Shown: piece after piece, positions 1-64,000 of the stretch
Numbering within the stretch: the stretch's first letter is position 1
Layout of the letters: every line of letters begins with the position of its first letter
Source of the DNA: Ruditapes philippinarum
Taxonomy: Eukaryota
NCBI RefSeq assembly: GCF_026571515.1
Contig: NW_026855039.1
Span: 1-64,000, forward strand
Reading direction: 5' to 3'
Length of the DNA: 64,000 nt
Notes under the pieces: model-generated
Databases searched by the model: none
What the model saw: the letters and a program-made list of their open reading frames with translations, nothing else
What the model was told of the DNA's origin: nothing
Position numbers and translations under genes: made by a program

Positions 1-1234
1 TGTATTGTTGGAAAAAGAGCAAAGTTCGACAACAAAACCATTTTTTAGCCAAACTCAACATCTAAGTCCCATAATTTTGCATGTCGAATATCTGTTGTTT
101 TCCGCCTACTGTGGAGTTGGTGCCAATGAAGCAGATCTTTTGGAAATTTTGTGAAATTAATTAAAACTGTAAGTTTCATTGAGAAAATCAACATAATAAA
201 AGACTTGAAGCTCTTACAAGATTAAGGGTTGTGAAAAGTGACACTAACGATTATAATAAACTGCGATTGATAGTTGATTATGTTAACACTATGCTCGGAC
301 ACATTACGTCGAATGCACATATTTATCAGAAATACACAATGATTTTACAGTCACAGGTTTATGTAGGCATGTCACGGAGCATGTCCAAAATAATTATAAG
401 TAGGAGTAGAAGTAGAAGAAACAAAAGAGGAATATGAGAATGAATAAATAATAAAAAAAGAACAGAAGAAGTGGCAGGAAACGAATAGGAAATAGTGCAA
501 TGTTAATAAGCTGATATAGAAGTAGAAGTTGTAGAAATAATTTGATCAATTTGATCAATGTTTTTCTATCTTATAAAGAGCAGCAAAAAAGTAGCTTATC
601 ACAGAAAAGCATACACTAAGTCTACGTGTGGTACCATAATTTTACATATGCAGCTTTAGAGAACTGAAATTCTTACTTTCAGTCATTTAGATTTTATGTA
701 TTCAGAAAAAATATATCAAAGCAATTTAAGTGATAACAAGAGCCATGTCAACATGGCCATCCCCCGCCGAATGTGTTTGCTCATTGGAAGAATGTATATG
801 TAGTAGAACAGAATAATTCTATTTTAAGAGGTCTTTTGGTAATGAAAACTGATGGCTATAGTGATTACAGATTTGAAACCTATATGAATACTGATGGCTG
901 AAAATAACAAAGGGCAATAACTGAAAAATAATGCAGGGTAGGTTATCATTCTTGTGTGCTGCATCCCTCATCAGTAAAATCTATCCACCTATGAAGTTTC
1001 AAGTTGATACCTCTGTAACGTTTTGACATTTTTACCAAGCTAGATTTTATTAAAGATTATCGTTTGCTGAAATGATTTTAGTGTAACTTTACTATTATGT
1101 TAATTGTTTATGTTGCGACAATGTATTTTAGTTTACGGTACTTTACAATATACGTTTAGTATACGTATTTTCAATAAACGTTTTATATCATATAATATAA
1201 TAATCGTCTCAGTGATAGTGATCATTCTAATCAG

Positions 1235-1310
1235 CCAATGAAAATTAAGTCATGCTTGAGCGATCATCTCAGCAGGTATAAATACGGCGATTAGATCAAA
1301 ATTATTCAGT
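1235..1310 (+). promoter_or_regulatory. LTR Pol II core promoter (CCAAT box, TATA box, TCAGT initiator)
   Basis: CCAAT 1235-1239, TATAAA 1277-1282 and TCAGT 1306-1310 at canonical ~30-nt TATA-Inr spacing. The same motifs occur in the 3' LTR at 4023, 4065 and 4094. Confidence 0.7.
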
Positions 1311-1336
1311 CTGCAGAGGAATTCACCGGGACCAGG

Positions 1337-1716
1337 TTATTCTGTGTAACTGAAGCCTCGCTTCATACATTGAGGATAATTTCGTTCACCTAACTGAAGC
1401 CTAGCTTCATAGGTAGAAAAGAAGAATTGGCCAAAACTAAATACTCTTGTTTATCCAATTGAAGCCTAGCTTCATGGATGTAGATGTAATATATTAAAGT
1501 TTGTGAATTGCATTTGACTCTGGGTACTTATAGATCTCCACATTTTCTGAAAGCCTCGCTATCAGGGAATTGGTAACATATAGGTATTAAAAATCCAGAG
1601 GTAGATTTAAAACGAATTAGATTTGTATAGTTGGAACTTTGTTATAGATCCCTACCAGCAGCTTATCTTCCTATCTAATAGAAGCCTCGCTTCATAGATA
1701 GGGAGGTGGTTGCTGG
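1337..1716 (+). other. Array of five RNA stem-loops sharing an apical UGAAGC-CU(C/A)-GCUUCA motif (second copy at 4125-4504)
   Basis: Cores at 1351, 1395, 1460, 1548 (variant) and 1681. Each sits on a different but base-paired lower stem containing G-U pairs. Confidence 0.75.
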
Positions 1717-1957
1717 ACTATAGGAAATTATCGGGTTGCAGCGTCATATCTATAGCTTTTGAATTATTTCATTGTGTTATAATTACAGTATTGTGACTTT
1801 TGATAATTTAATAGTGTATTACGGAATGTTAATTCAAGCTGATTGTTTATAATATTTGATCATTTAAGAATCATTTGTATCTAATCAAACGGCAGGTAGC
1901 CCAAAGAAAAATTTATTATACATATCTAAATATTCGCTCGGTACACGTTACAAAAAT

Positions 1958-1979
1958 TGGTGGCAGCGACGGTGGGATT
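1958..1979 (+). promoter_or_regulatory. Primer-binding site, tRNA-Leu type, with a 3-nt interruption
   Basis: TGGTGGCAGCG-acg-GTGGGATT versus TGGTGGCAGCGGTGGGATT, the complement of the 3' end of metazoan tRNA-Leu(AAG/TAG). Confidence 0.75.
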
Positions 1980-2031
1980 ATATAGATAAAAACACCATTA
2001 TCTAGACTCACAGGTTAAAATTTCGTTAAAA

Positions 2032-3692
2032 ATGGCTGAGAGTAAAGATTATATAGTTATGAGAATGAGCTTACATTGTTACATGAAAAACTTAGAGAAC
2101 TTCAGCACCAAAATGAAGCTTTGAAATTGCAAAATGAGATATCGGTACTTGAAAGGCAGATAGACAGTATGCAGTTATCTTTTCAAAATCAATATGACTC
2201 AAACTATGAAGGCAAACAAACGTCAACACCTAAATTTTTAACAAGACAATATGCAGCACCTCTATCAGAAAGAAGGCGACGGTTATTACCACCGACTCCA
2301 GATAAAAAGCCCTTTGAAATAGAACGTGACCCTATAAACTCAAATTCAAAACGAAGTGTTATGATGAAGCCAGCTACGTATGATGGAACTAGCTCATGGA
2401 TAGATTATAAAGCGCATTTTGAAGCATGTTCAGAAATTAATCGATGGACAAACAAAGAAAAAGGTCTTTATTTATCTGTTTTATTAAGAGGTCAAGCTCA
2501 GGGTGTATTTGGCAATCTGACAAGCAAATCACCGAATTATGATGAACTTGTATTAGCATTACAAGAAAGGTTTTCACCACCCAATCAAACTGAATTATAT
2601 AGAGCTCAACTAAGAGAAAGAAGACAAAAAGCTACAGAATCTTTATCTGAGATGGGGCAGGACATAAGACGTTTGACTAATTTAGCATACCCTTCAGCAC
2701 CATCAGATGTGAAAGAGACTTTAGCGAAGGAACAATTTATAGATTCTTTGGTTAACTCGGATATGAGGCTTAGAATTAAACAAGCTCGTCCTACTAGCTT
2801 GAATGAAGCAGTAAGACACGCTGTTGAGCTTGAGGCTTTCAACAGAGCAGAACAAAAGTCCTATGAAACCCGTGGTTATATGAGAAAGTTAAATTCTGAT
2901 CAGTATGAGTTTCTGAAAAGTGAAGATGACAAATTAGATAGCCTGACAAAATTAGTAGAGGAAATGAAGAATATGTTATTTATGTTTAGACGCCAAAATA
3001 ACTATCAAACATTTGATAAAAGAAACCGAAATACTTCAAAGCAAAAGCAGAATAATAGAACGTCTTCAAGAACATTTGCTAATGAGCCAAATACAAATAG
3101 TTTGAATTGTTATGAGTGTGGTAAGAAAGGTCATAATAAATACAATTGTCGAAAGTTCAGTGGCAGATCGAAACGAAAAATTAATCTGTTGGAGAAAGAT
3201 TGTGAAAACTCGTCTAATTCGTGTGGTTCCGGGTTATTTGTTGAAGCTACAATAAATGGCATTAAAGCTAATTGTTTAATTGATACTGGTGCAACATTTT
3301 CAATTATTTCTTCAAGTTTTATAGATAGATGTCAGTTTCCAGTAAGTTTAGAACCGTTTGGTACAAACATTGTAAATGCATCTGGAAAACCTTTAGAAAT
3401 AAAAGGAAGAACACATTTAGATATTAAATTGAATGATAGAATTTCAACAAATCCTTTCATAGTTTCTGACATAGAGGGAGATGCAATATTAGGATTAGAT
3501 TTTATGACAGCAAGAAATATTGTAATAGATGTTCCAAATAATCAGTTAACAGCCAATGGTAAAAAGATGAAAATAAATTGTAAAGGTCCGATTGGTTGTA
3601 ACCGCGTGATTTGTCATTTTTGTGGAATGAAATTTAAAAAGAAAGCTTATATAAGACAGCACTGTAGAAGAATACATAGTTCTGGAATATAA
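2032..3692 (+). CDS. Gag (capsid + CCHC knuckle) - aspartic protease - C-terminal C2H2 zinc finger polyprotein; 1-nt frameshift just after the likely ATG
   Basis: Gypsy Gag motif PATYDGTSSWIDYKAHFE...W...LRGQA; knuckle CYECGKKGHNKYNC at 3108-3149; protease LIDTGA at ~3276-3293 with ILGLDF; C2H2 finger CHFC-x12-H-x4-H at 3612-3677. The ATG at 2032 is out of frame with the long frame, which is open from 2046. Confidence 0.9.
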
Positions 3693-3782
3693 ATATAAAT
3701 GAGATTCGGAGTGTGTGTATGCCAAATCTAATTGTTTGAGGCAGCTTAAAACATATTTTGTAAGTTCATGCGGGGCGCATGT

Positions 3783-3801
3783 AAAACGGAGGCGTGGGTA
3801 G
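3783..3801 (+). promoter_or_regulatory. Polypurine tract
   Basis: Purine-rich AAAACGGAGGCGTGGGTAG directly abutting the 3' LTR. Confidence 0.6.
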
Positions 3802-4740
3802 TGTAACGTTTTGACATTTTTACCAAGCTAGATTTTATTAAAGATTATCGTTTGCTGAAATGATTTTAGTGTAACTTTACTATTATGTTAATTGTTTATG
3901 TTGCGACAATGTATTTTAGTTTACGGTACTTTACAATATACGTTTGGTATACGTATTTTCAATGAACGTATGAAATCATATAATATAATAATCGTCTCAG
4001 TGATAGTGATCATTCTAATCAGCCAATGAAAATTAAGTCATGCTTGAGCGATCATCTCAGCAGGTATAAATACGGCGATTAGATCAAAATTATTCAGTCT
4101 GCAGAAAAATTCACCGGGACCAGGTTATTCTGTGTAACTGAAGCCTCGCTTCATACATTGAGGATAATTTCGTTCACCTAACTGAAGCCTAGCTTCATAG
4201 GTAGAAAAGAAGAATTGGCCAAAACTAAATACTCTTGTTTATCCAATTGAAGCCTAGCTTCATGGATGTAGATGTAATATATTAAAGTTTGTGAATTGCA
4301 TTTGACTCTGGGTACTTATAGATCTCCACATTTTCTGAAAGCCTCGCTATCAGGGAATTGGTAACATATAGGTATTAAAAATCCAGAGGTAGATTTAAAA
4401 CGAATTAGATTTGTATAGTTGGAACTTTGTTATAGATCCCTACCAGCAGCTTATCTTCCTATCTAATAGAAGCCTCGCTTCATAGATAGGGAGGTGGTTG
4501 CTGGACTATAGGAAATTATCGGGTTGCAGCGTCATATCTATAGCTTTTGAATTATTTCATTGTGTTATAATTACAGTATTGTGACTTTTGATAATTTAAT
4601 AGTGTATTACGGAATGTTAATTCAAGCTGATTGTTTATAATATTTGATCATTTAAGAATCATTTGTATCTAATCAAACGGCAGGTAGCCCAAAGAAAAAT
4701 TTATTATGCATATCTAAATATTCGCTCGGTACACGTTACA
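3802..4740 (+). repeat. 3' LTR
   Basis: Near-identical direct repeat of 1014-1952. Confidence 0.97.
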
Positions 4741-5856
4741 CCTCAAATACTTTTTGAGAAAAAAATTGAATTGAAAAATTAAGTATGAAAAATAACAAAG
4801 GGCAATAACTCAAAAATTATAAAAGGTAGAGTTACCATTCCTGTGCAGTGCACACCTCCTGAGTGAGATCTATGCACCTATGAAGTTTCATTTTGATATC
4901 TCAAAGGCTTTTTGAGTTATGCTCTGGACAAAAATCAATTTTGAAAAATAACAAAGGGCAATAACTCAAAAATCATGCAAGGTAGAGTTATCATTCTTGT
5001 GCACAGCACTCCTCCTCAATGAGGTCTATCCACATATAACATTCCTCCTCAATAAGATCTATCCACCTATGACATTTCATGTTGATATCTCAAACACTTT
5101 TTGAGTTATGCTCCACTCAGGTGAAAAATTAGGTATGAAAAATAACAAAGGGCAATAACTCAAAAATTATGAAAGGTAGAGTTATCATTCATGTGCACTG
5201 CACACCTCCTGAGTGAGATCTATGCACCTATGAAGTTTCATGTTAATATCTCATAGGATTTTGGAGTTATGCTCTGGACAAAAATCAATTTTGAAAAATA
5301 ACAAAGGGCAATAACTCAAAAATCATGCAAGGTAGAGTTATCATTCTTGTGCACTGCACTCCTCCTCAATGTGGTCTATCCACCTATGAAGTTTCAAGTT
5401 GATAACTCAAATACTTTTAGAGATATGCTCCGGACAAAAATGTCGGACGGAAGGACGGACGGACGGACGGAAGGTCGGACGGACGGACGGAGACTATTTC
5501 TATATCCTCCGCCGAAAATTTTCGGCTGGGGATAATAAACTGGCCACAACTTATTTACAGTTTTGCTCATACCAATAAATGAATAAGACACTTTATTTTA
5601 TGTCTTTTTATAGTCCTATAGCAAACTTTACTGATCTACCGTCACGCATGGAAACAAATGAATGCAATAGGAACATATGCGTATTGGTAAACTATCATAA
5701 TTAGTTTACCACTGTCGGAATAGATTTATACAAACTTTTAAGATATAATAAGCATGTAACGCATGTGATATTTACAGAGAAAACCGGGTGCATATTATGC
5801 TTGTGTCGGATACGATCAATATCTAAAGTGAAAGTTACAGTGGTTTGTTTTATAAA

Positions 5857-8748
5857 ATGGCGGAGTCTATAGAAGACGATTCAAAACCATTTTACAATCA
5901 ATTGTTTCAGTTATTAAAATCGGTACCGACAACAGAGAGTGTGGCTGAAGAAAAAAGTGATCTTCACAGAGCCGCCGTTAAAGGTGACATAGAACTGTTA
6001 AAACAGACTCTGTCTTCTGGACAATGTGAAATTAATCTTCAGGATGACTGGGACCATACCGCCTTATTTACAGCTGTGCAAAAAGGTCACGGCGAAATAG
6101 CAAACATACTTATTTCACACGGAGCAAATATAAATGCGGATAGTAATGAATCATTAAAGGATAGTAATCCATTGCATTGTGTTCGTGATGTAAACATTGC
6201 GAAGGATCTTCTGAAGGCTGGTGGGGATGTTAATGCAATCAATCTAAAGGGTGACACACCTTTACACAGAGCCGTGATGAGGGAGGATTTACCAATAATA
6301 TCATTTTTGTTAGAACATGACGCTGATGTGAACCTACAGAATTATGAGGGTTGGTCCGCCTTACATACTTGCTGTTATCCATCAGGTAGTGAAACTATGG
6401 TGACAGCTATAAAATATATAATTTCACACGGGGGCAATGTGAACTTGCATGACCACTTTGAAATGACACCACTCCACCAACTTGCTAGAGGATCTGCAAC
6501 GAATTTGGCAGTGAAGACGCTTGTTTCGGCAGGATCAGATTTGCACGTCAAAGATTATCGTGGAAACTGTCCAGTCCATTACTTCCGCTCCTTTACAGCT
6601 GACGAAGAGGAGAACTTTATTGAAACTCTGAAAGAATTTATTGTGTCAACAGAAACGGCTAATGTTAGAGATTTCAGAGGTCAAACCCCTCTTCATATAA
6701 ATACAGATACATCTGCTAAAGTAATTGATAAACTAATACATCTGGGTTGTCAAGTAAACGCTCGTGACCACCAAGGAAAGACAGCTCTACATGTTGCGTC
6801 TGGTCTACAAGATAGACAAGATATCATACAGCAACTTTTAAAAACTGGACAAAATGTAAATGTAAAGGATAACATGGGAAGAACATCTTTACATGAGGCA
6901 GCAAAAGCAAGCAACCACGTAATAGCACAGTTATTGATATCCTATAATGCCGAGCCAAATGCGCGGGACATCTGCGGATGCACACCTCTTCACGAAGCTG
7001 CTTTAAAGCAAGATGCTAGAACAGTAGACATCCTCTTAAAGAGTGGTGCAGTTATTAACATCACAGACATAAACTTGTCGACTCCTCTCCACTTTGCAGC
7101 ATGGGAGGATAGTGAAAAGTCGGCAGAGTTTCTACTAGCTAATGGTGCAAATATCAACTTAAAAGATAATCTTGGTCATACACCTTTGGATATAGCACAA
7201 CTAAGAAGAGCAGTAAATGTAGCCGGCTTACTGACTTGCAGCGATCATAAAAGTGAGGCCAAGAATAAGGTAGAAAAAAATGAAAATATGTTTGCACTTT
7301 CAAATTGTGGAGGTCAATATCTTTCATTTAACACTGTTTCAAAGACAATTGAAGAAAATGAGATTACGAGAAAGGATCAGATGGAAGTTCAACCATTTCT
7401 AAGACTTATATTACAATCACCTGATGTAGGAAGAGGTTGCGATGAAGCCGAGGCTAGAGAAATTCAATTGGCAATGGAAGAGCTAGTGCAAACTTTGGCT
7501 GAAAGAATTGGAAAAACCGACTGGAGATTTCGATGTTCGCTGCTTCATGCAGGGAGTATGTCAGAAGGAACTAAAACACGATGTCCAGATGAGTTTGATT
7601 TCATATTTGTTTTGGAAGAGTTCAGTAAGCACTGTTATCCTGTCTTTTTAGACATTGATAGCGAAACGCTCACCGGTCTTCATATACCATCAAATATGAC
7701 TGGAAGGAGAGATTTGCCGGCTGAAACTGTTAAACTAGAAGACCGACCAAGCACAGTGGAACGGACATTATCAGTGTCGGTATCAGATTACGCTAATATA
7801 ACAATTAACAATACAGAAGAATCTGAACCTTTTGCTAAGTTTGCTGGATCGACTATCATGCCGGTATATAAGATGTATGATGGTTTTGCGCAACTTATCA
7901 CAAAAGTATTATTTCATGAAACTTTCCCGAAGAACCCAAAGTTAACAGTCATTGAGACAACTCTAGATCCAGCCATGAAACTTTGTTGGAGAGGATGCAG
8001 ATACAAAGATTTAGAAATAGACGTTGATTTGGTACCTGCAATTGTTCTTCAAGAATGGCCCGAACAGTTCAAAAAGGATAACATCCTTCTGACACCGGAT
8101 ATCCTGAGATTACCAAGCCTTGTTGTGCCTAAAATGACAGCAGGGACAGATGAAGATTTGTGGAGGTGTTCACTTGCTCCTGAAGAATCAGCTATCTTTA
8201 GGAAATTGAAACCAGCCATAAGGAACAGCTATGTGGCATGTAAAGCACTTATCTGCTCACACGTTTGTCCTCAAATTAGCTTTGATGGGAATGAGGAAGT
8301 AATGAGTTTTTATAGAATGGAACACGACAGTCTTTCTTCTGAAGAAAGTATTGAAGTTTTTGAAAACGCCGAGCATATTGTTCCTTCTTACATGCTAAAA
8401 ATGACTTTCTTTGCTGCTATTGCAAGCAAAGCTGAAAACGAGGGAATACAAAATGTTTACATGGATGATAGTGACCGATCAGGAAGCTTGGACAGTGGGA
8501 ATACAGAAAACCCCAAAGAAACAAGTGTTTATGGTCCTGCAAAGGAGATGTACGTGGCAGAGAAATTTGATGACTTGGATGTTCCACTTGTGCTTGATGT
8601 TTTCAAAAGATGTGCAGAATGCATTGATAAACGATTTGTGCCATCCTTCTTCAATCCAAAACATAATGTATTAGGTGCACGAGTAATGGAAGGTGATTTA
8701 GAAAAAGTTGCAGTATTTATAACTTTCATTCAGAGATTATTAGCCTAG
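5857..8748 (+). CDS. Ankyrin-repeat cGAS-like receptor (ANK + Mab-21/cGAS nucleotidyltransferase domain), 963 aa, uninterrupted ORF
   Basis: ATG at 5857 (AAAATGG). About 13 ankyrin repeats (TPLHxA...GAxVN) over ~5960-7230. NTase signature AGSMSEGTK...PDEFDFIF at ~7549-7610, third acidic residue in IDVDLVPAI, Mab-21 C-terminal motifs SYMLK and FFNPKHNVL. AATAAA at 8775-8780. Confidence 0.92.
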   Translation: MAESIEDDSKPFYNQLFQLLKSVPTTESVAEEKSDLHRAAVKGDIELLKQTLSSGQCEINLQDDWDHTALFTAVQKGHGEIANILISHGANINADSNESLKDSNPLHCVRDVNIAKDLLKAGGDVNAINLKGDTPLHRAVMREDLPIISFLLEHDADVNLQNYEGWSALHTCCYPSGSETMVTAIKYIISHGGNVNLHDHFEMTPLHQLARGSATNLAVKTLVSAGSDLHVKDYRGNCPVHYFRSFTADEEENFIETLKEFIVSTETANVRDFRGQTPLHINTDTSAKVIDKLIHLGCQVNARDHQGKTALHVASGLQDRQDIIQQLLKTGQNVNVKDNMGRTSLHEAAKASNHVIAQLLISYNAEPNARDICGCTPLHEAALKQDARTVDILLKSGAVINITDINLSTPLHFAAWEDSEKSAEFLLANGANINLKDNLGHTPLDIAQLRRAVNVAGLLTCSDHKSEAKNKVEKNENMFALSNCGGQYLSFNTVSKTIEENEITRKDQMEVQPFLRLILQSPDVGRGCDEAEAREIQLAMEELVQTLAERIGKTDWRFRCSLLHAGSMSEGTKTRCPDEFDFIFVLEEFSKHCYPVFLDIDSETLTGLHIPSNMTGRRDLPAETVKLEDRPSTVERTLSVSVSDYANITINNTEESEPFAKFAGSTIMPVYKMYDGFAQLITKVLFHETFPKNPKLTVIETTLDPAMKLCWRGCRYKDLEIDVDLVPAIVLQEWPEQFKKDNILLTPDILRLPSLVVPKMTAGTDEDLWRCSLAPEESAIFRKLKPAIRNSYVACKALICSHVCPQISFDGNEEVMSFYRMEHDSLSSEESIEVFENAEHIVPSYMLKMTFFAAIASKAENEGIQNVYMDDSDRSGSLDSGNTENPKETSVYGPAKEMYVAEKFDDLDVPLVLDVFKRCAECIDKRFVPSFFNPKHNVLGARVMEGDLEKVAVFITFIQRLLA

Positions 8749-39529: not shown

Positions 39530-41380
39530 TCCCTATTCACTGATCGGTCGAGTATTGTTTTTCTGTTCCATTTATTCCAATGTACCAGAGTTTTCATGTT
39601 CGTTTTTTCTGTTTATTTGTTTCTTTATTTGTGTTACTGGTTCGATGTCGCGATTTGAGAAATTTTTAAACCGCATGCTTATGATAGCCTCTGGGAAACC
39701 CTCAAGGTATCTTGTGTATATATGAGTTGATGCGTTTTCAAAATCATGCATATATTCTGAGGGTGCAGAAAAACCGTAATGACGTTTCTTTGGTACTTTT
39801 GTGCCGATTTTGATTGAATCACCACAGCTCTATCGGAGGTCGACTGTTACATTAAATTATATGGAGAACTTTCCTTTTTGAGAATCAACTCTGGAATTAA
39901 GTTGATAACTTTGTCATCTTGGTGCAGTTGTCGTATTTGAAAATTTTGTTTAAAGCTAAGACTTTCAATAGCGACACTGCCTGATATATCAAGGCTTAGG
40001 GATTCATGAGTTCCAACTTTCCCATTGGCTCTAAAACCTATCCGTCTATTATGCCCTTGGATATTGACTTGACTTGTACAATTCTATTCCTATCATAAGA
40101 GTGAAAAATATTTGGTGCGCGACACTCTTCATCATACGCGGAATACAGAGACTTTTTCTTTTTCTCATGTGGACGAAATTTTCCAAGAACTATGTTTTGC
40201 TAAACACACATCCCTTACTATGTAGCTATTTGAACTGTACTAGTAATGCTATCATGTATGTATTTTTTCTCATCACTTTCGGAACTATTTACCATTAATG
40301 TTTCTGTCTCAGGAATACGCCTTTCACAGGAGTTTGTGCAAACAGCCACACGTTGTATTCTGTTGATGTAACCTGAAATATCTGCATATTCTTCTAATGA
40401 AAAGTACCCCTTCCTACTTACACTTCTAAGTAATGATTCACTTGTCATAGTTTGTATCCGTACTCGATAAAAACACTCGCCAATAAATTTACGGACTTTC
40501 ATGCCATTAACTTCTTCTCCATTTTCTGCAATCTTCTTTCTTGCCCATTTATCAACTGCTTCCAATATCTTTGTTTCATCGGCATACAATGTATCACCCT
40601 TTAGAATATACAGCAGGCATTTCTCATTCAGATTCATAAAACTTTCAGATTCGAGGACTTCCAATGTATGGTTGTCGATAAAAGAACAGCAGGTGTCTCT
40701 CAGTGCAGTGAGGTCGTACAACATCGCGTTACTGAGAACATCACATGCGTTGTCCGTTGTAATGACTTTCATCAACAAGTCTGCACAATACTGTACAAAA
40801 CTGGAAACTTGGTAGAAGTGAGCTGTACGCAAAATGTCAAACGCTGTTTCTGCAGAAAGGTCCATGGTTTCGTTTTATACGTACCTAGAAAAATGTTGAG
40901 CTATTAATAACAAATTCTCCGAGTACAAATGATTTTAATGTTTAATTGCTGTGAAAGAGCATTTAACGTAGTTACCTCTTGGAATTCAAAGGACAATTAA
41001 AACAAGATTCACTACATATATCAACTATTAAAGAATAGAATAACTTGAATATCACAGCTTATCTACCTTTGTCATAAGTCGAATGTTTCCCTTGTCACGT
41101 GTTCCAGTTCCACCTCGTCATTCCTTGTCAGCACATGGACCAAAGAAAATTGCCTGGAACACTAGACTTCTAGCAGCTAAAACAATCTTATGTGCTTTAA
41201 TTGTAGCCACCTCAGGGTGATCTTTGTAGTGGAAAGTCACATCAGTCCAAAGACTTAAGTTAGACATTTCTAACATACATGCTGCAAGACCTTCGGTCTC
41301 GCGAGATATCAATATTTCACCGCTGCTCGTAGAAAAATACATAGCCTCAGAAATCTACTACAACATAAAATTCCGTATTT
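39530..41380 (-). pseudogene. BTB/POZ-BACK domain pseudogene (copy A)
   Basis: Colinear with 45582-47376 but carries a +1 frameshift at ~41123, TGA at ~41073-41075, TAA at 40875-40877 and TAG at 40218, with further degeneration downstream. Confidence 0.9.
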
Positions 41381-45581: not shown

Positions 45582-47376
45582 CTACGACTTTTTGGAACAG
45601 ATTCCATGTACTTTTTGTGTTCCACTTTTCAGAGGAAGGACAGGTTTAATATCGCGATTTGAAAAAAATTTAAACTGCATGCTTTTTATTGCCCCTTGGA
45701 AACCATTAACGTATCTTGTGTGTATTTCACGTGAGTGTGCAGAAAAACCGCAATAGTTTTTTTTGGGTACTGCGCCAATTTTGATTGCACCACCACAGGT
45801 ATATCGAAGGACAACTGTTAATTTGTACGGAGAACTTGCTTTTTTGAGTATTAATTCTGGAATTATTTTAATAACGTTGTTGTCTTGGTGTTGCATTTTA
45901 AAATCTTGTTTAAAGCTAAGACTTTCAATAGTGACACTACCTGATATATCTAGGTTTAGGTATTCAGGGAGTTCCAACTCTTCAATTGGCTTTAAAACGT
46001 ATCCTTTTACTTCATTCCATATTGACTCGACTTGTACAATCAATTTATTACGAGACATTTCTTTATCTTTTTTAGTTATACTTTGAATTTGTTTATGATA
46101 CTCATTTTCAAACGGGGAATACAGAGACTTTTTCAATGTTTCATACGGACACAATTTTCCAATAACAATTTTTGATAAACACACATCTCGTCCTACAACT
46201 ATTTGAACTGTACTTGAAATGCTATCATGTACTGTGTATTTGTTCTCTCCACTTGCCAAACTATTTTCTTCACCTTTACAATAACCTAACATTTCTTGGA
46301 CTGTCTCGGTCTCCGAAATACGCCCAACACTGGAGTTTGTAGAAACGGATATACCCGATATTCTATTGATGTAACCTGAAATATCGGCATATTCTTCTAC
46401 TGAAAAATATCCTCTTCTACTCACACTTCTTAGTAATGATTCACTTGTCATAGTTGGTATCCGTACTTGATAAAAACACTCGCCGAGATATTTACGGACA
46501 TTCGTGCCGTTAACTTCTTCTCCATTTTCTGCAATCTTCTTTCTTGCCCATTTATCAACTGCTTCCAATATCTTTGTTTCATCTGCATACAATGTATCAC
46601 CTTTTAGAATATACAGCAGGCATTTCTCATTCAGATTCATAAAGCTGTCAGATTTAAGGACTTCCAATGCATGGTTGTCGATAAAAGAACAGCAGGTGTC
46701 TCTCAGTGCAGTGAGGTCGTACAACATCGCGTTACTGAGAACATCACATGCGTTATCCGTTGTAATGACATTCATCAAAAAGACTGCACAAAACTGTACA
46801 AGACTGGAAACTTGGTAGCAGTGAGCTGTACGCAAAATTTCAAACACTGTTTCTGTAGAAAGGTCCACAGTATCACTGTATACGTACCTAGAGAAAATGT
46901 AGAATGATTAACAACATATTCGGTAGGAAAAAATGATTTTAATGTTTAATTGTTGTGAAAGAGCATTAATGTAGACACCATTTAGATTTAAAAGGACATT
47001 TAAAAAAAGTTTCACTAAATATATAAACTTGTAAAAATAGAGTTATTTTAATATCACAGGTTATTTACCTAAGGAATAAGTCGAATGTTTCCCTTGTTAC
47101 GTGTTCCAGTTCCACCTGGTCATTCTTGTCAGCACATGGACCAAAGAACATTGCCTGAAACACTTGACTTCTAGCAGCTAAAACTGTCTTGTGCGCTTTG
47201 ATTGTAGCCACCTCAGCGTGATCTTTGAAACGAAAAATCACATCAGTCCAAAGACTTTGGTTATACATTTCTAACAAACATGCTCCCAGACCTTTGTTCT
47301 GTTGACAGCCGACGGTATACGTCTGTAGGGCGTCTGTAGAGCGTTGTAGAACGTGAACAGCGTCATCTGACTCCAT
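45582..47376 (-). CDS. BTB/POZ-BACK domain protein, BTBD1/2/3/6-like (copy B, intact; 2 coding exons, 537 aa)
   Basis: Exons 47376-47069 and 46887-45582. Motifs WTDVIF...IKAHKTVLAARSQVFQAMFFG, FLRYVYSD, and BACK-type E..ILEAVDKWA...VRIPTMT. Confidence 0.9.
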
Positions 47377-61928: not shown

Positions 61929-63264
61929 TTATTCTACTGTACCAGAGTTTTCTTGTACGTTTTTCTGTTCATTTGCGCTTTTATTTGTAAGTCCAAGTAC
62001 TGGTTCTATGTCACGATTTGAGAAATTTTTAAACCCCATACTTTTGATAGCCCCTGGGAAACCTTCAACATAACTTGTGCGTATATGACAAAAATTTTGT
62101 TTAGCAGCAGGCAAATGTTTTGAGGCTTCAGAAAAATCACGATAAGGTTTCTTTGCTACCTTTTCGCCAATTCCGATTGCACCACCACAGCTATATCGAA
62201 GGACAACTTTTAAATTATACGGAGAACTTTCCTTTTTGAGTATTAACTCTGGAATTACATTAATAACGTTGTCATCTTGGTGCAGTTGTCTTATTTGAAA
62301 ATCTTGTGTAAAGCTAAGACTTTCAATAGCGACACTGCATGATATATCAAGACTCAGGTTTTCCGGGAGTTCTAACTCTTCAATTGGCTCTAAAACGTAT
62401 CCTTTAATTTCTTGCAGTAATATTGACTTCACTTGTACAATTGTACCCCGATACACGTTTATATCGTTTTGAGATATTCTTTGAGTTTGTTTGTAAAACT
62501 CGTCTTCAGACCATGCAGACGGAGAATACAGAGACTTTCTCAATTGTTCATACGGACAAAATTTTCCAAGAACAACATTTGATAAACACACATCTCTTTC
62601 TACATCTATTAGAACTGTACTGGAAATGCTGTTACGTATGTATTTGTCCTCTTCTTTTGCAGCACACCCTATTATCACTGTTTCTGTCTCCCGAATACGC
62701 TTTACACTGGAATTTGTAGAAACGGAAACATCCGGAATCCTATTTATGTAACCTGAAATATCGGCATATTCTTCTACTGAGAAATATCCCTTTCTACTTA
62801 CACTTCTAAGTAATAATTCACTTGTCAAAGTTGGAACCCGAACTTGATAAAAACACTCGCCGAGATATTTACGGACATTCGTGCCGTTAACTTCTTCTTT
62901 ATTTTCTGCAATCTTCTTTCTTGCCCATTTATCAACTGCTTCAAATATCTTTGTTTCATCGGCATACAATGTATCACCTTTTAGAATGTAAAGGAGGCAT
63001 TTCTCATTCAGGTTCATAAAACTTTCAGATTCGAGGACTTCCAATGCATGGTTGTCGACAAAAGAACAGCAGGTGTCTCTCAGTGCAGTGAGGTCGTACA
63101 ACATCGCGTTATTGAGAACATCACATGCGTTTTCCGTTGTAATGACATTCATCAAAAAGTCTCCACAATATTGTACAAGACTAGAGACTTGATAGAAGTG
63201 AGCTATACGCAAAATATCAAACGCTGTTTCTACAGAAAGGTCCAGGGTTTCACTGTATATGTAC
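61929..63264 (-). CDS. BTB/POZ-BACK domain protein copy C, large last exon (first coding exon not in window)
   Basis: Same phase-2 acceptor (CTAG|GTAC) as copies A and B; open frame YIYSETLDLSVETAF...ENSGTVE*. Confidence 0.85.
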
Positions 63265-64000
63265 CTAGTGAAAAATGTAAAACGGTTTGAGTTAAGTAAC
63301 ATTGTTTATGCTTATAAGTTAAAGTAATAACACCATAACGTACATTCTAACAAACATAATATGATACATATGTACATTGTAAAACTATCTAATACCTAGG
63401 AAATTTAGATATTTCAAGGCCAATACGGCAAGATCTAGGTCATTATGCAATTTTTGTCGCCTTGCTTATTACTTTTTTCAATAATGGGCGAGTAAATGAA
63501 CGCACGTGTAAAATGACGTAATCAACTTTCAGTGACATTTAAGATAGCTGCTGACGTTGAACGAACTGTTAGATGACATAATCAAACACAGTATTGAAGA
63601 AGACCTTTTATCTCAAGAAAATATCCAATAACTGACTCCAAGCCAAATCATGATCCGAAAATGACTTCAGATTGACGATAGATCTACTCTATAAACATGA
63701 AAGGAGAAATTTCAAAAACGATATTAAAGCTAAAGAATTTCTTCTAGTTGAGTATATAGATCTAGATTTAGCGCTACATCTCGCGACAGATCTTAAGACA
63801 ATAACAGCCAATTTGCAACAAAAGAAGAACCATAACCATCAACAAGAAAGGGAAAGGATCGGGGATATCTAGACCTAGATTTATGACTTGACAACATCAG
63901 AACGTTCTGGAGCGCACAAACATGTAAGTTATAATGCACTTGAGCACTTGATTGTCCTATCTGTTTTATAGTGGGGGGGGATAATGTAAAGCGTGTAAGA

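Follow-up and report, generated by a model that had tools for sequence, protein, structure and literature searches.

A selected array of RNA hairpins in the leader of a bivalve Gypsy retrotransposon lineage, with a zinc-finger protein as its candidate partner

Which function could maintain a row of five RNA hairpins in the long terminal repeat (LTR) of a retrotransposon, and which protein could bind them? The question is raised by a Gypsy element on the + strand (1014-4740, 3.7 kb) of the window, a stretch of 64,000 nucleotides from Ruditapes philippinarum (contig NW_026855039.1, positions 1 to 64,000). The element is assigned to Ty3/Gypsy by its LTRs with TG...CA ends, its target duplication (CCTC, 1010-1013 and 4741-4744) and its primer-binding site (PBS; 1958..1978, +), which we take to be of the tRNA-Leu type; the order protease-RT-RNase H-integrase is present in the full-length relatives L051, L052 and L054. 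The 5' LTR (1014..1952, +) has 939 bp and differs from the 3' LTR (3802..4740, +) at 8 positions. It contains a CCAAT (1235), a TATA box (1277-1284, +) and an initiator-like TCAGT (1306-1310), the spacing of which suggests a transcription start near 1308. A 548-codon frame (2046..3692, +) codes for Gag, a CCHC knuckle, an aspartic protease and a C2H2 finger of 22 residues (3612..3677, +), which is in frame with the protease and forms an island between two deletions. RT, RNase H and integrase are absent from this frame, and the copy is non-autonomous; its first ATG (2032) lies in a frame other than that of the 548 codons. Of the Gag relatives that are named, the closest (77% and 57%) belong to venerid clams. 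The LTR search resulted in 168 candidates, of which 40 were scored; most paired LTRs are spaced by ~2.7-3.3 kb. One full-length member of the window family (L056) was found.

The element sits within a tandem repeat of ~160 bp (942-1013 and 4741-5424). In seven LTR copies (L032, L034, L042, L044, L048, L056 (5' LTR only) and L097), SINE-like inserts of about 330-790 nt, with differing lengths and tails, are found between TATA and initiator (1298-1310 in the window). This gap is an apparent insertion hot spot, separating the promoter from the hairpins. ARAGORN called no tRNA genes in the inserts.

The initial annotation placed five hairpins downstream of the TATA box and initiator. They are indeed present, in both LTRs (the second array copy is at about 4121-4507). 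The core, TGAAGC-CT(C/A)-GCTTCA, starts at 1351, 1395 and 1460, as had been stated; the fourth copy is a variant (AGC-CTC-GCT at 1552-1560), and the last match starts at 1680 with one mismatch, its GAAGC being at 1681. All four core copies recur in the 3' LTR (4139, 4183, 4248 and 4468), so that the window has 8 matches versus 0.09 expected (0/100 shuffles). Genome-wide, the 13-mer core occurs 392 times, the reversed control 4 times. The fold of 1308-1730 (-139.5 kcal/mol) recovers each of the five hairpins, together with the A(C/T) bulge and the lower stems that had been described. Hairpin 1 (1333..1384, +) has a long lower stem, an AC bulge, a 6-bp upper stem and a CUC loop. Hairpin 2 (1388..1414, +) has a 5-bp lower stem, an AC bulge, a 6-bp stem and a CUA loop, and hairpin 3 (1451..1481, +) has a lower stem, an AU bulge, a 6-bp stem and a CUA loop. 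Hairpin 4 (1517..1600, +) carries its variant apex on a long interrupted stem. Hairpin 5 (1652..1719, +) has 27 predicted pairs, with an AU bulge, an A-A mismatch and a CUC loop. When 1308-1730 is folded as RNA, the + strand has a z of -8.0 and the - strand of -1.3. This asymmetry is due to hairpins 1, 4 and 5, because the 13 G-U pairs, all on one strand, are distributed as 4, 0, 1, 4 and 4. The sequence between the copies had been considered unrelated, which does not wholly apply to hairpins 1-3: their flanks have ~20 nt in common, and they look like old duplications.

The motif had not been recognized as a described one, and Rfam has nothing at the gathering threshold for the window LTR (best E = 1.1) and 0 hits for six related loci; hairpin 5 matches microRNA models only weakly (E about 1-9, far below gathering). 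In searches of openly accessible full texts, we found no account of the RNA or of the protein family; the supplements of mollusc surveys may include these elements. Bivalve Gypsy elements are also among the mollusc Gypsy clades, which are classed by RT/RNase H (PMC6238403). The main text of that survey is silent on the PBS, on zinc fingers and ORFs, and on elements that are non-autonomous (PMC6238403).

Whether the structure is under selection was analyzed in 57 LTR copies. Four copies with less than 82% identity were dropped and near-identical ones merged, which left 37 rows; the columns of the hairpin-4 apex are not considered. Variants found in a single row, which mostly represent decay after insertion, are as frequent at paired as at unpaired sites (0.42 versus 0.41 per site), and 14/83 keep the pairing. 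Variants found in at least three rows are rarer at paired sites (0.094 versus 0.292 per site, p = 8e-5), and 13/19 keep the pairing (p = 2e-5 against the private ones). When the analysis was repeated on 41 rows with pairs of high probability, the latter was confirmed (24/37 shared versus 27/116 private, p = 6e-6), with a weaker depletion at paired sites (p = 0.045), which thus depends on the pair set. In a U3 control, shared and private variants did not differ significantly in pairing (p = 0.18). Of two other families, L068 has the same signal (5/5 versus 6/39, p = 4e-4), and L067 is borderline and not significant (p = 0.06). The first bulge base is an A in 35/35, 36/37, 36/37 and 37/37 rows, and the second is C or T. 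In the LTR leader, selection acts on the array as a + strand RNA structure, consistent with the multivalent module that had been postulated, and the covariation sought among homologous LTRs exists.

The build of the hairpins recurs in L187, a metagenome contig with a Gag 74% identical to that of the window. It has four hairpins with the same A-pyrimidine bulge, 6-bp stem and triloop, in which stems and loops differ. In an alignment of eight units from the window and L187, 96.6% of the cells pair and 16 changes are two-sided (0/500 shuffles), figures which overstate independence because the units were chosen for folding and include duplicates of one another. The loops are CUC, CUA, UCU, AAA, CCU and ACA. 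Because the L187 hairpins have the same build but other loops, the loop is not the fixed part; its three bases vary freely across relatives, in which the bulge and the closing GC/GC pairs are retained. The apex, which the initial annotation considered conserved, is conserved only within a family. In local folds, L193, L198 and L208 have 5-6 GC-closed triloops each and L068 has three; L067 has four with another apex. Many sister families have their own triloop hairpins, and several have none. Only 7/20 leaders reach z <= -3, and several are devoid of strand bias. A strong array was not found in the leaders of L051, L054, L058, L189, L194 and L203, and the R/U5 z is about 0 in L051, L054, L058, L189 and L203, all of which are finger-bearing. 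Repeated triloop arrays are also lacking in the 500 nt before the PBS of 16 distant families and in the distant finger-bearing families L083, L085 and L089. A short Gag tree does not group the window family and L187 as sisters. A covariance model retrieved only its own training units as strong matches, with L068 and L193 at E 0.05-0.8; viral contigs gave no locus and phage records no match.

A second conserved box is lineage-wide. In this box (1869..1911, +), AATCA repeats are followed by a hairpin of 3-4 bp, the loop of which is purine (1891-1901 in the window), and then by an A-rich tract; it is present in 16/18 LTRs (doubled in L053, L059 and L194). Its stems covary across families (GGC/GCC, GAC/GTC, GGA/TCC, GGT/ACC and GCC/GGC). 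The box is a candidate core packaging or 3'-end signal. It was also considered as a splice donor, which is ruled out by the lack of a GT at this position in several families. An ACTTACC-like motif follows the PBS in L051, L053, L054, L058, L067 and L068 (about 2006 in the window), and could be an opposite-strand splice donor or, when read in sense, a U1-like sequence.

The candidate partner of the array is encoded behind integrase. Full-length relatives have one frame of ~1,950-2,000 codons, in which protease-RT-RNase H-integrase is followed by one or two zinc fingers. In all 11 relatives in which the integrase-to-finger junction is intact, a pyrimidine tract and a YAG are found 1-21 nt before a Met, which opens a zinc-finger protein of 248-327 aa (217 aa in one case). 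At this junction, the acceptor of the deleted L062 is no more than weak, and in L189 the frame is shut by a stop just upstream. Alignment searches retrieved stand-alone proteins that begin at the post-integrase Met, some of which may derive from genomes close to that of the window; RefSeq models among them are XP_060584443.1, XP_060581387.1 and XP_053373393.1. This Met is residue 1 in 31/45 family proteins. On the other side, a candidate 5' splice site (CAG/GTTATT, 1333..1341, +, cut 1335/1336) is paired into the base of hairpin 1; its GT is retained in 33/37 LTR copies. A donor-like site at +50..99 from the TATA box is found in 10/18 elements versus 16/202 other bins (p = 2e-7), and a strong donor is missing from this range in 8/18. 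We thus predict that the zinc-finger protein is made from a spliced message. The array would be located inside the intron, because the candidate donor lies just upstream of the hairpins. Neither a processed copy of the spliced message nor a poly(A) end was found among 27 loci, and the 18 LTRs compared have no conserved AATAAA. In two runs filed as RNA-Seq (X21 and X22), chimeras make up 72-74% and loose ends fall at GATC, resembling proximity-ligation DNA; run X23 had 0 reads and run X24 had 7, and no transcript start, end or splice was readable in any of the four. In the distant Gypsy elements L083, L085, L087 and L089 (Gag about 35%), a separate post-pol frame is preceded by acceptor-like sequence and a Met and codes for zinc fingers of another type, so that spliced finger genes may be widespread.

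Among the best 25 of 31 Pfam matches for 11 accessory proteins, most are zinc-finger families and none is a Rev or Rex family. A structure model (pTM 0.22) is confident only in the fingers and the last helix; a fold search retrieved C2H2 proteins of the generic DNA-binding kind, all of them above E = 0.001, and Atlas hits were under 0.9. The start of the protein resembles the tail of host histone H3. T3, K4, T6, R8 and K9 are matched in 34, 39, 38, 33 and 31 of 45 family proteins, and all five in 22/45, counts for proteins gathered by a profile that already contained the motif; A1 is matched in only 12/45 and R2 in 0/45. An acidic DW..P motif is present in 29/45. Both features point to a role at chromatin rather than in export. 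A PDB sequence search with the 22-residue N-terminus gave no match, and a model of the acidic motif in complex with H2A-H2B, in which alignments were unused, reached an indecisive score of 0.02. Viral histone mimics are known, namely the H3 tail of influenza NS1 and the DWP motif of EBV BKRF4 (PMC12937675, PMC9477414). The parts of these reports cited here show the same short H3-like tail and an acidic stretch with Trp and Pro (PMC12937675, PMC9477414). In the clam lineage, both features are on one zinc-finger retrotransposon protein, and the W-to-P spacing is unlike that of BKRF4 (PMC9477414).

The finger is retained where most of pol is lost. It is intact and in frame in 16/17 deleted copies, and the sequence behind it drifts. 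L062, L060 and L182 have lost RT by other deletions, and their fingers are also in frame. The H3-like tail and the acidic motif are dropped from deleted elements. The hairpins are more numerous in the deleted partner for the window family versus L056 (five versus hairpins 4 and 5 only) and for L067 versus L053, but not for L062 versus L054. The finger DNA of deleted families is only ~72% identical to that of the full-length partner versus 85-96% for gag (window versus L056; L062 versus L054). This low identity could reflect fast change or a different donor.

We propose that the array is a multi-copy site for the zinc-finger accessory protein of the lineage, marking unspliced RNA for export and use, a reading to which we attribute slightly less than an even chance. 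The C2H2 finger of the element, which had been named as a possible binder, is kept as the candidate. Transcription would begin near 1308, and by default the donor ~28 nt into the transcript would be joined to the acceptor right after integrase, resulting in a short message for a zinc-finger protein of 250-330 aa. The 5' copy of the array would then be present only in unspliced RNA, because the hairpins are just inside the predicted intron. The finger would bind the bulged stems, several at once, and binding at hairpin 1 could also hold the donor paired. Deleted elements would depend on a full-length partner for RT and integrase; a finger fused to Gag-protease, together with more hairpins (5 versus 2), might help them to compete. 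Against such an export pair, finger and array do not always co-occur, a strong donor is missing in 8/18 elements, no processed copy of the spliced message turned up among 27 loci, and the protein has the chromatin-type features mentioned above. A more encompassing version is possible, but we consider it doubtful: a spliced zinc-finger protein with an H3-tail mimic might read family-specific arrays on nascent unspliced RNA, providing self-specific anti-silencing as well as export, and deleted parasites would amplify the array and keep the finger in order to capture the machinery, all this in a widespread bivalve Gypsy lineage.

The closest precedent, and the only invertebrate regulator, that our searches turned up is CERV, the regulator of the C. 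elegans LTR retrotransposon Cer1, which marks unspliced RNA for export (PMC10309623). As far as the cited sections describe it, Cer1 resembles the clam lineage in being a Gypsy-type element with one long frame and no envelope, and in having an extra coding region behind pol and ahead of the 3' LTR that is spliced (in the clam: predicted to be) and codes for a cysteine-based motif (PMC10309623). CERV has 517 aa and five exons, some of them shared with Gag, and a proposed C4 loop, and its homologs are confined to nematodes; the cited sections name no RNA response element (PMC10309623). The clam protein, in contrast, is a C2HC/C2H2 protein of 250-330 aa with one predicted exon, and is accompanied by a candidate RNA element. 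HIV-1 Rev is a protein from spliced RNA that acts on intron-containing RNA, as summarized in the same source (PMC10309623). Rev/RRE and Rex/RxRE share with the clam model a protein from a spliced message and a structured element that is multivalent and resides on intron-containing RNA; in the clam, the spliced message is predicted, the structured element is found, and its intron placement depends on the predicted donor. The Rex element of HTLV is located in the LTR. Rev and Rex rely on motifs rich in arginine and on a leucine export signal, and RRE and RxRE are large branched RNAs, whereas the clam protein uses zinc fingers and its candidate element consists of repeated triloop hairpins.

How full-length RNA of LTR retrotransposons with splice sites exits the nucleus, and how an element distinguishes its own RNA from that of a relative, is for the most part an open field. 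The lineage supplies both halves of a possible answer, a covarying RNA unit of 27 nt and a finger of 22 residues, in many natural variants. If the finger binds the hairpins, the pair would resemble Rev or Tat systems but lie outside retroviruses and be assembled from other components, and would represent a new mode of RNA recognition by C2H2 fingers and possibly a histone mimic of a transposon.

A TAR-like role had been suggested from the start, and it stays a live, albeit unlikely, rival to the marking of unspliced RNA. The finger would bind nascent hairpins at the promoter, in the manner of Tat, and the tail and the acidic motif would recruit or decoy chromatin factors, leading to self-specific activation or anti-silencing. 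Lentiviral TAR is a hairpin at the 5' end with a 5'-side pyrimidine bulge below a short upper stem and with a sequence-specific loop. The clam hairpins would likewise be near the 5' end, with the array starting ~25 nt after the inferred start, and have a 5'-side bulge beneath a short stem. Their bulge is, however, A-pyrimidine, they occur in 4-6 copies, and the six loops of the window and L187 are three free bases rather than a specific sequence. The five matched H3 positions and the acidic motif, which recalls the H2A-H2B-binding motif of BKRF4, fit such a tether. The poor matches at A1 and R2 do not, the H3-like motif may be a nuclear localization signal, and deleted elements, which keep the finger, dispense with the tail and the acidic motif.

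The other initial suggestion, a packaging or dimerization signal, would be read by the Gag nucleocapsid, with the C2H2 finger being uninvolved. The array is positioned as expected for it, after the candidate donor and before gag: retroviral packaging signals are typically downstream of the donor and upstream of gag. The surplus of hairpins in deleted elements (2/3 pairs) would also fit. The loops, however, are variable triloops that lack self-complementarity, hairpins are unlike even in families whose Gag is similar, the lineage-wide element is another small hairpin, close to the end of the LTR (the AATCA box), and the retention of the finger would be left unexplained. We consider this signal rather improbable, and the marking of unspliced RNA likelier because a candidate donor lies upstream of the array, and an acceptor and a Met precede the finger protein.

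Sites for host RNA-binding proteins involved in export, stability or translation, comparable to the constitutive transport elements of simple retroviruses, are less probable still. A fixed host partner would explain that the same unit is found in two non-sister Gag lineages from different records, but the hairpins differ in further families of the same genome, and Rfam has no match. Far less probable, and largely refuted by the covariation outside the core, is the reading of the cores as DNA palindromes, spaced by 3 bp and bound by a dimeric transcription factor: the core in the window is perfectly palindromic (6-3-6), folding is also seen for the - strand as DNA (z = -3.1), and L068, L193 and L208 show no strand asymmetry, yet the lower stems all pair despite differing in sequence, the bulge is one-sided, a U-G wobble is retained in 4/4 L187 units, and inherited variants keep the pairing outside the core. 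Equally far-fetched are small-RNA precursors, for which the length of hairpin 5 and its weak microRNA-model scores could be cited but in which the arms would be conserved, whereas here apex and bulge are kept and the arms vary, and neutral duplications tidied by template switching in reverse transcription, which would fit the duplicated look of hairpins 1-3 but would yield perfect repeats rather than 13 one-strand G-U pairs and an invariant bulge A.

Elsewhere in the window, an intronless 973-codon frame (5827-8748, +) codes for ankyrin repeats and has a weak match to Mab-21 nucleotidyltransferase (E 1e-4); its product is a candidate cGAS-like receptor. Three related repeats are found on the - strand (about 40218-40874, 45582-46907 and 61929-63305), and the two that were scanned are BTB/BACK frames.
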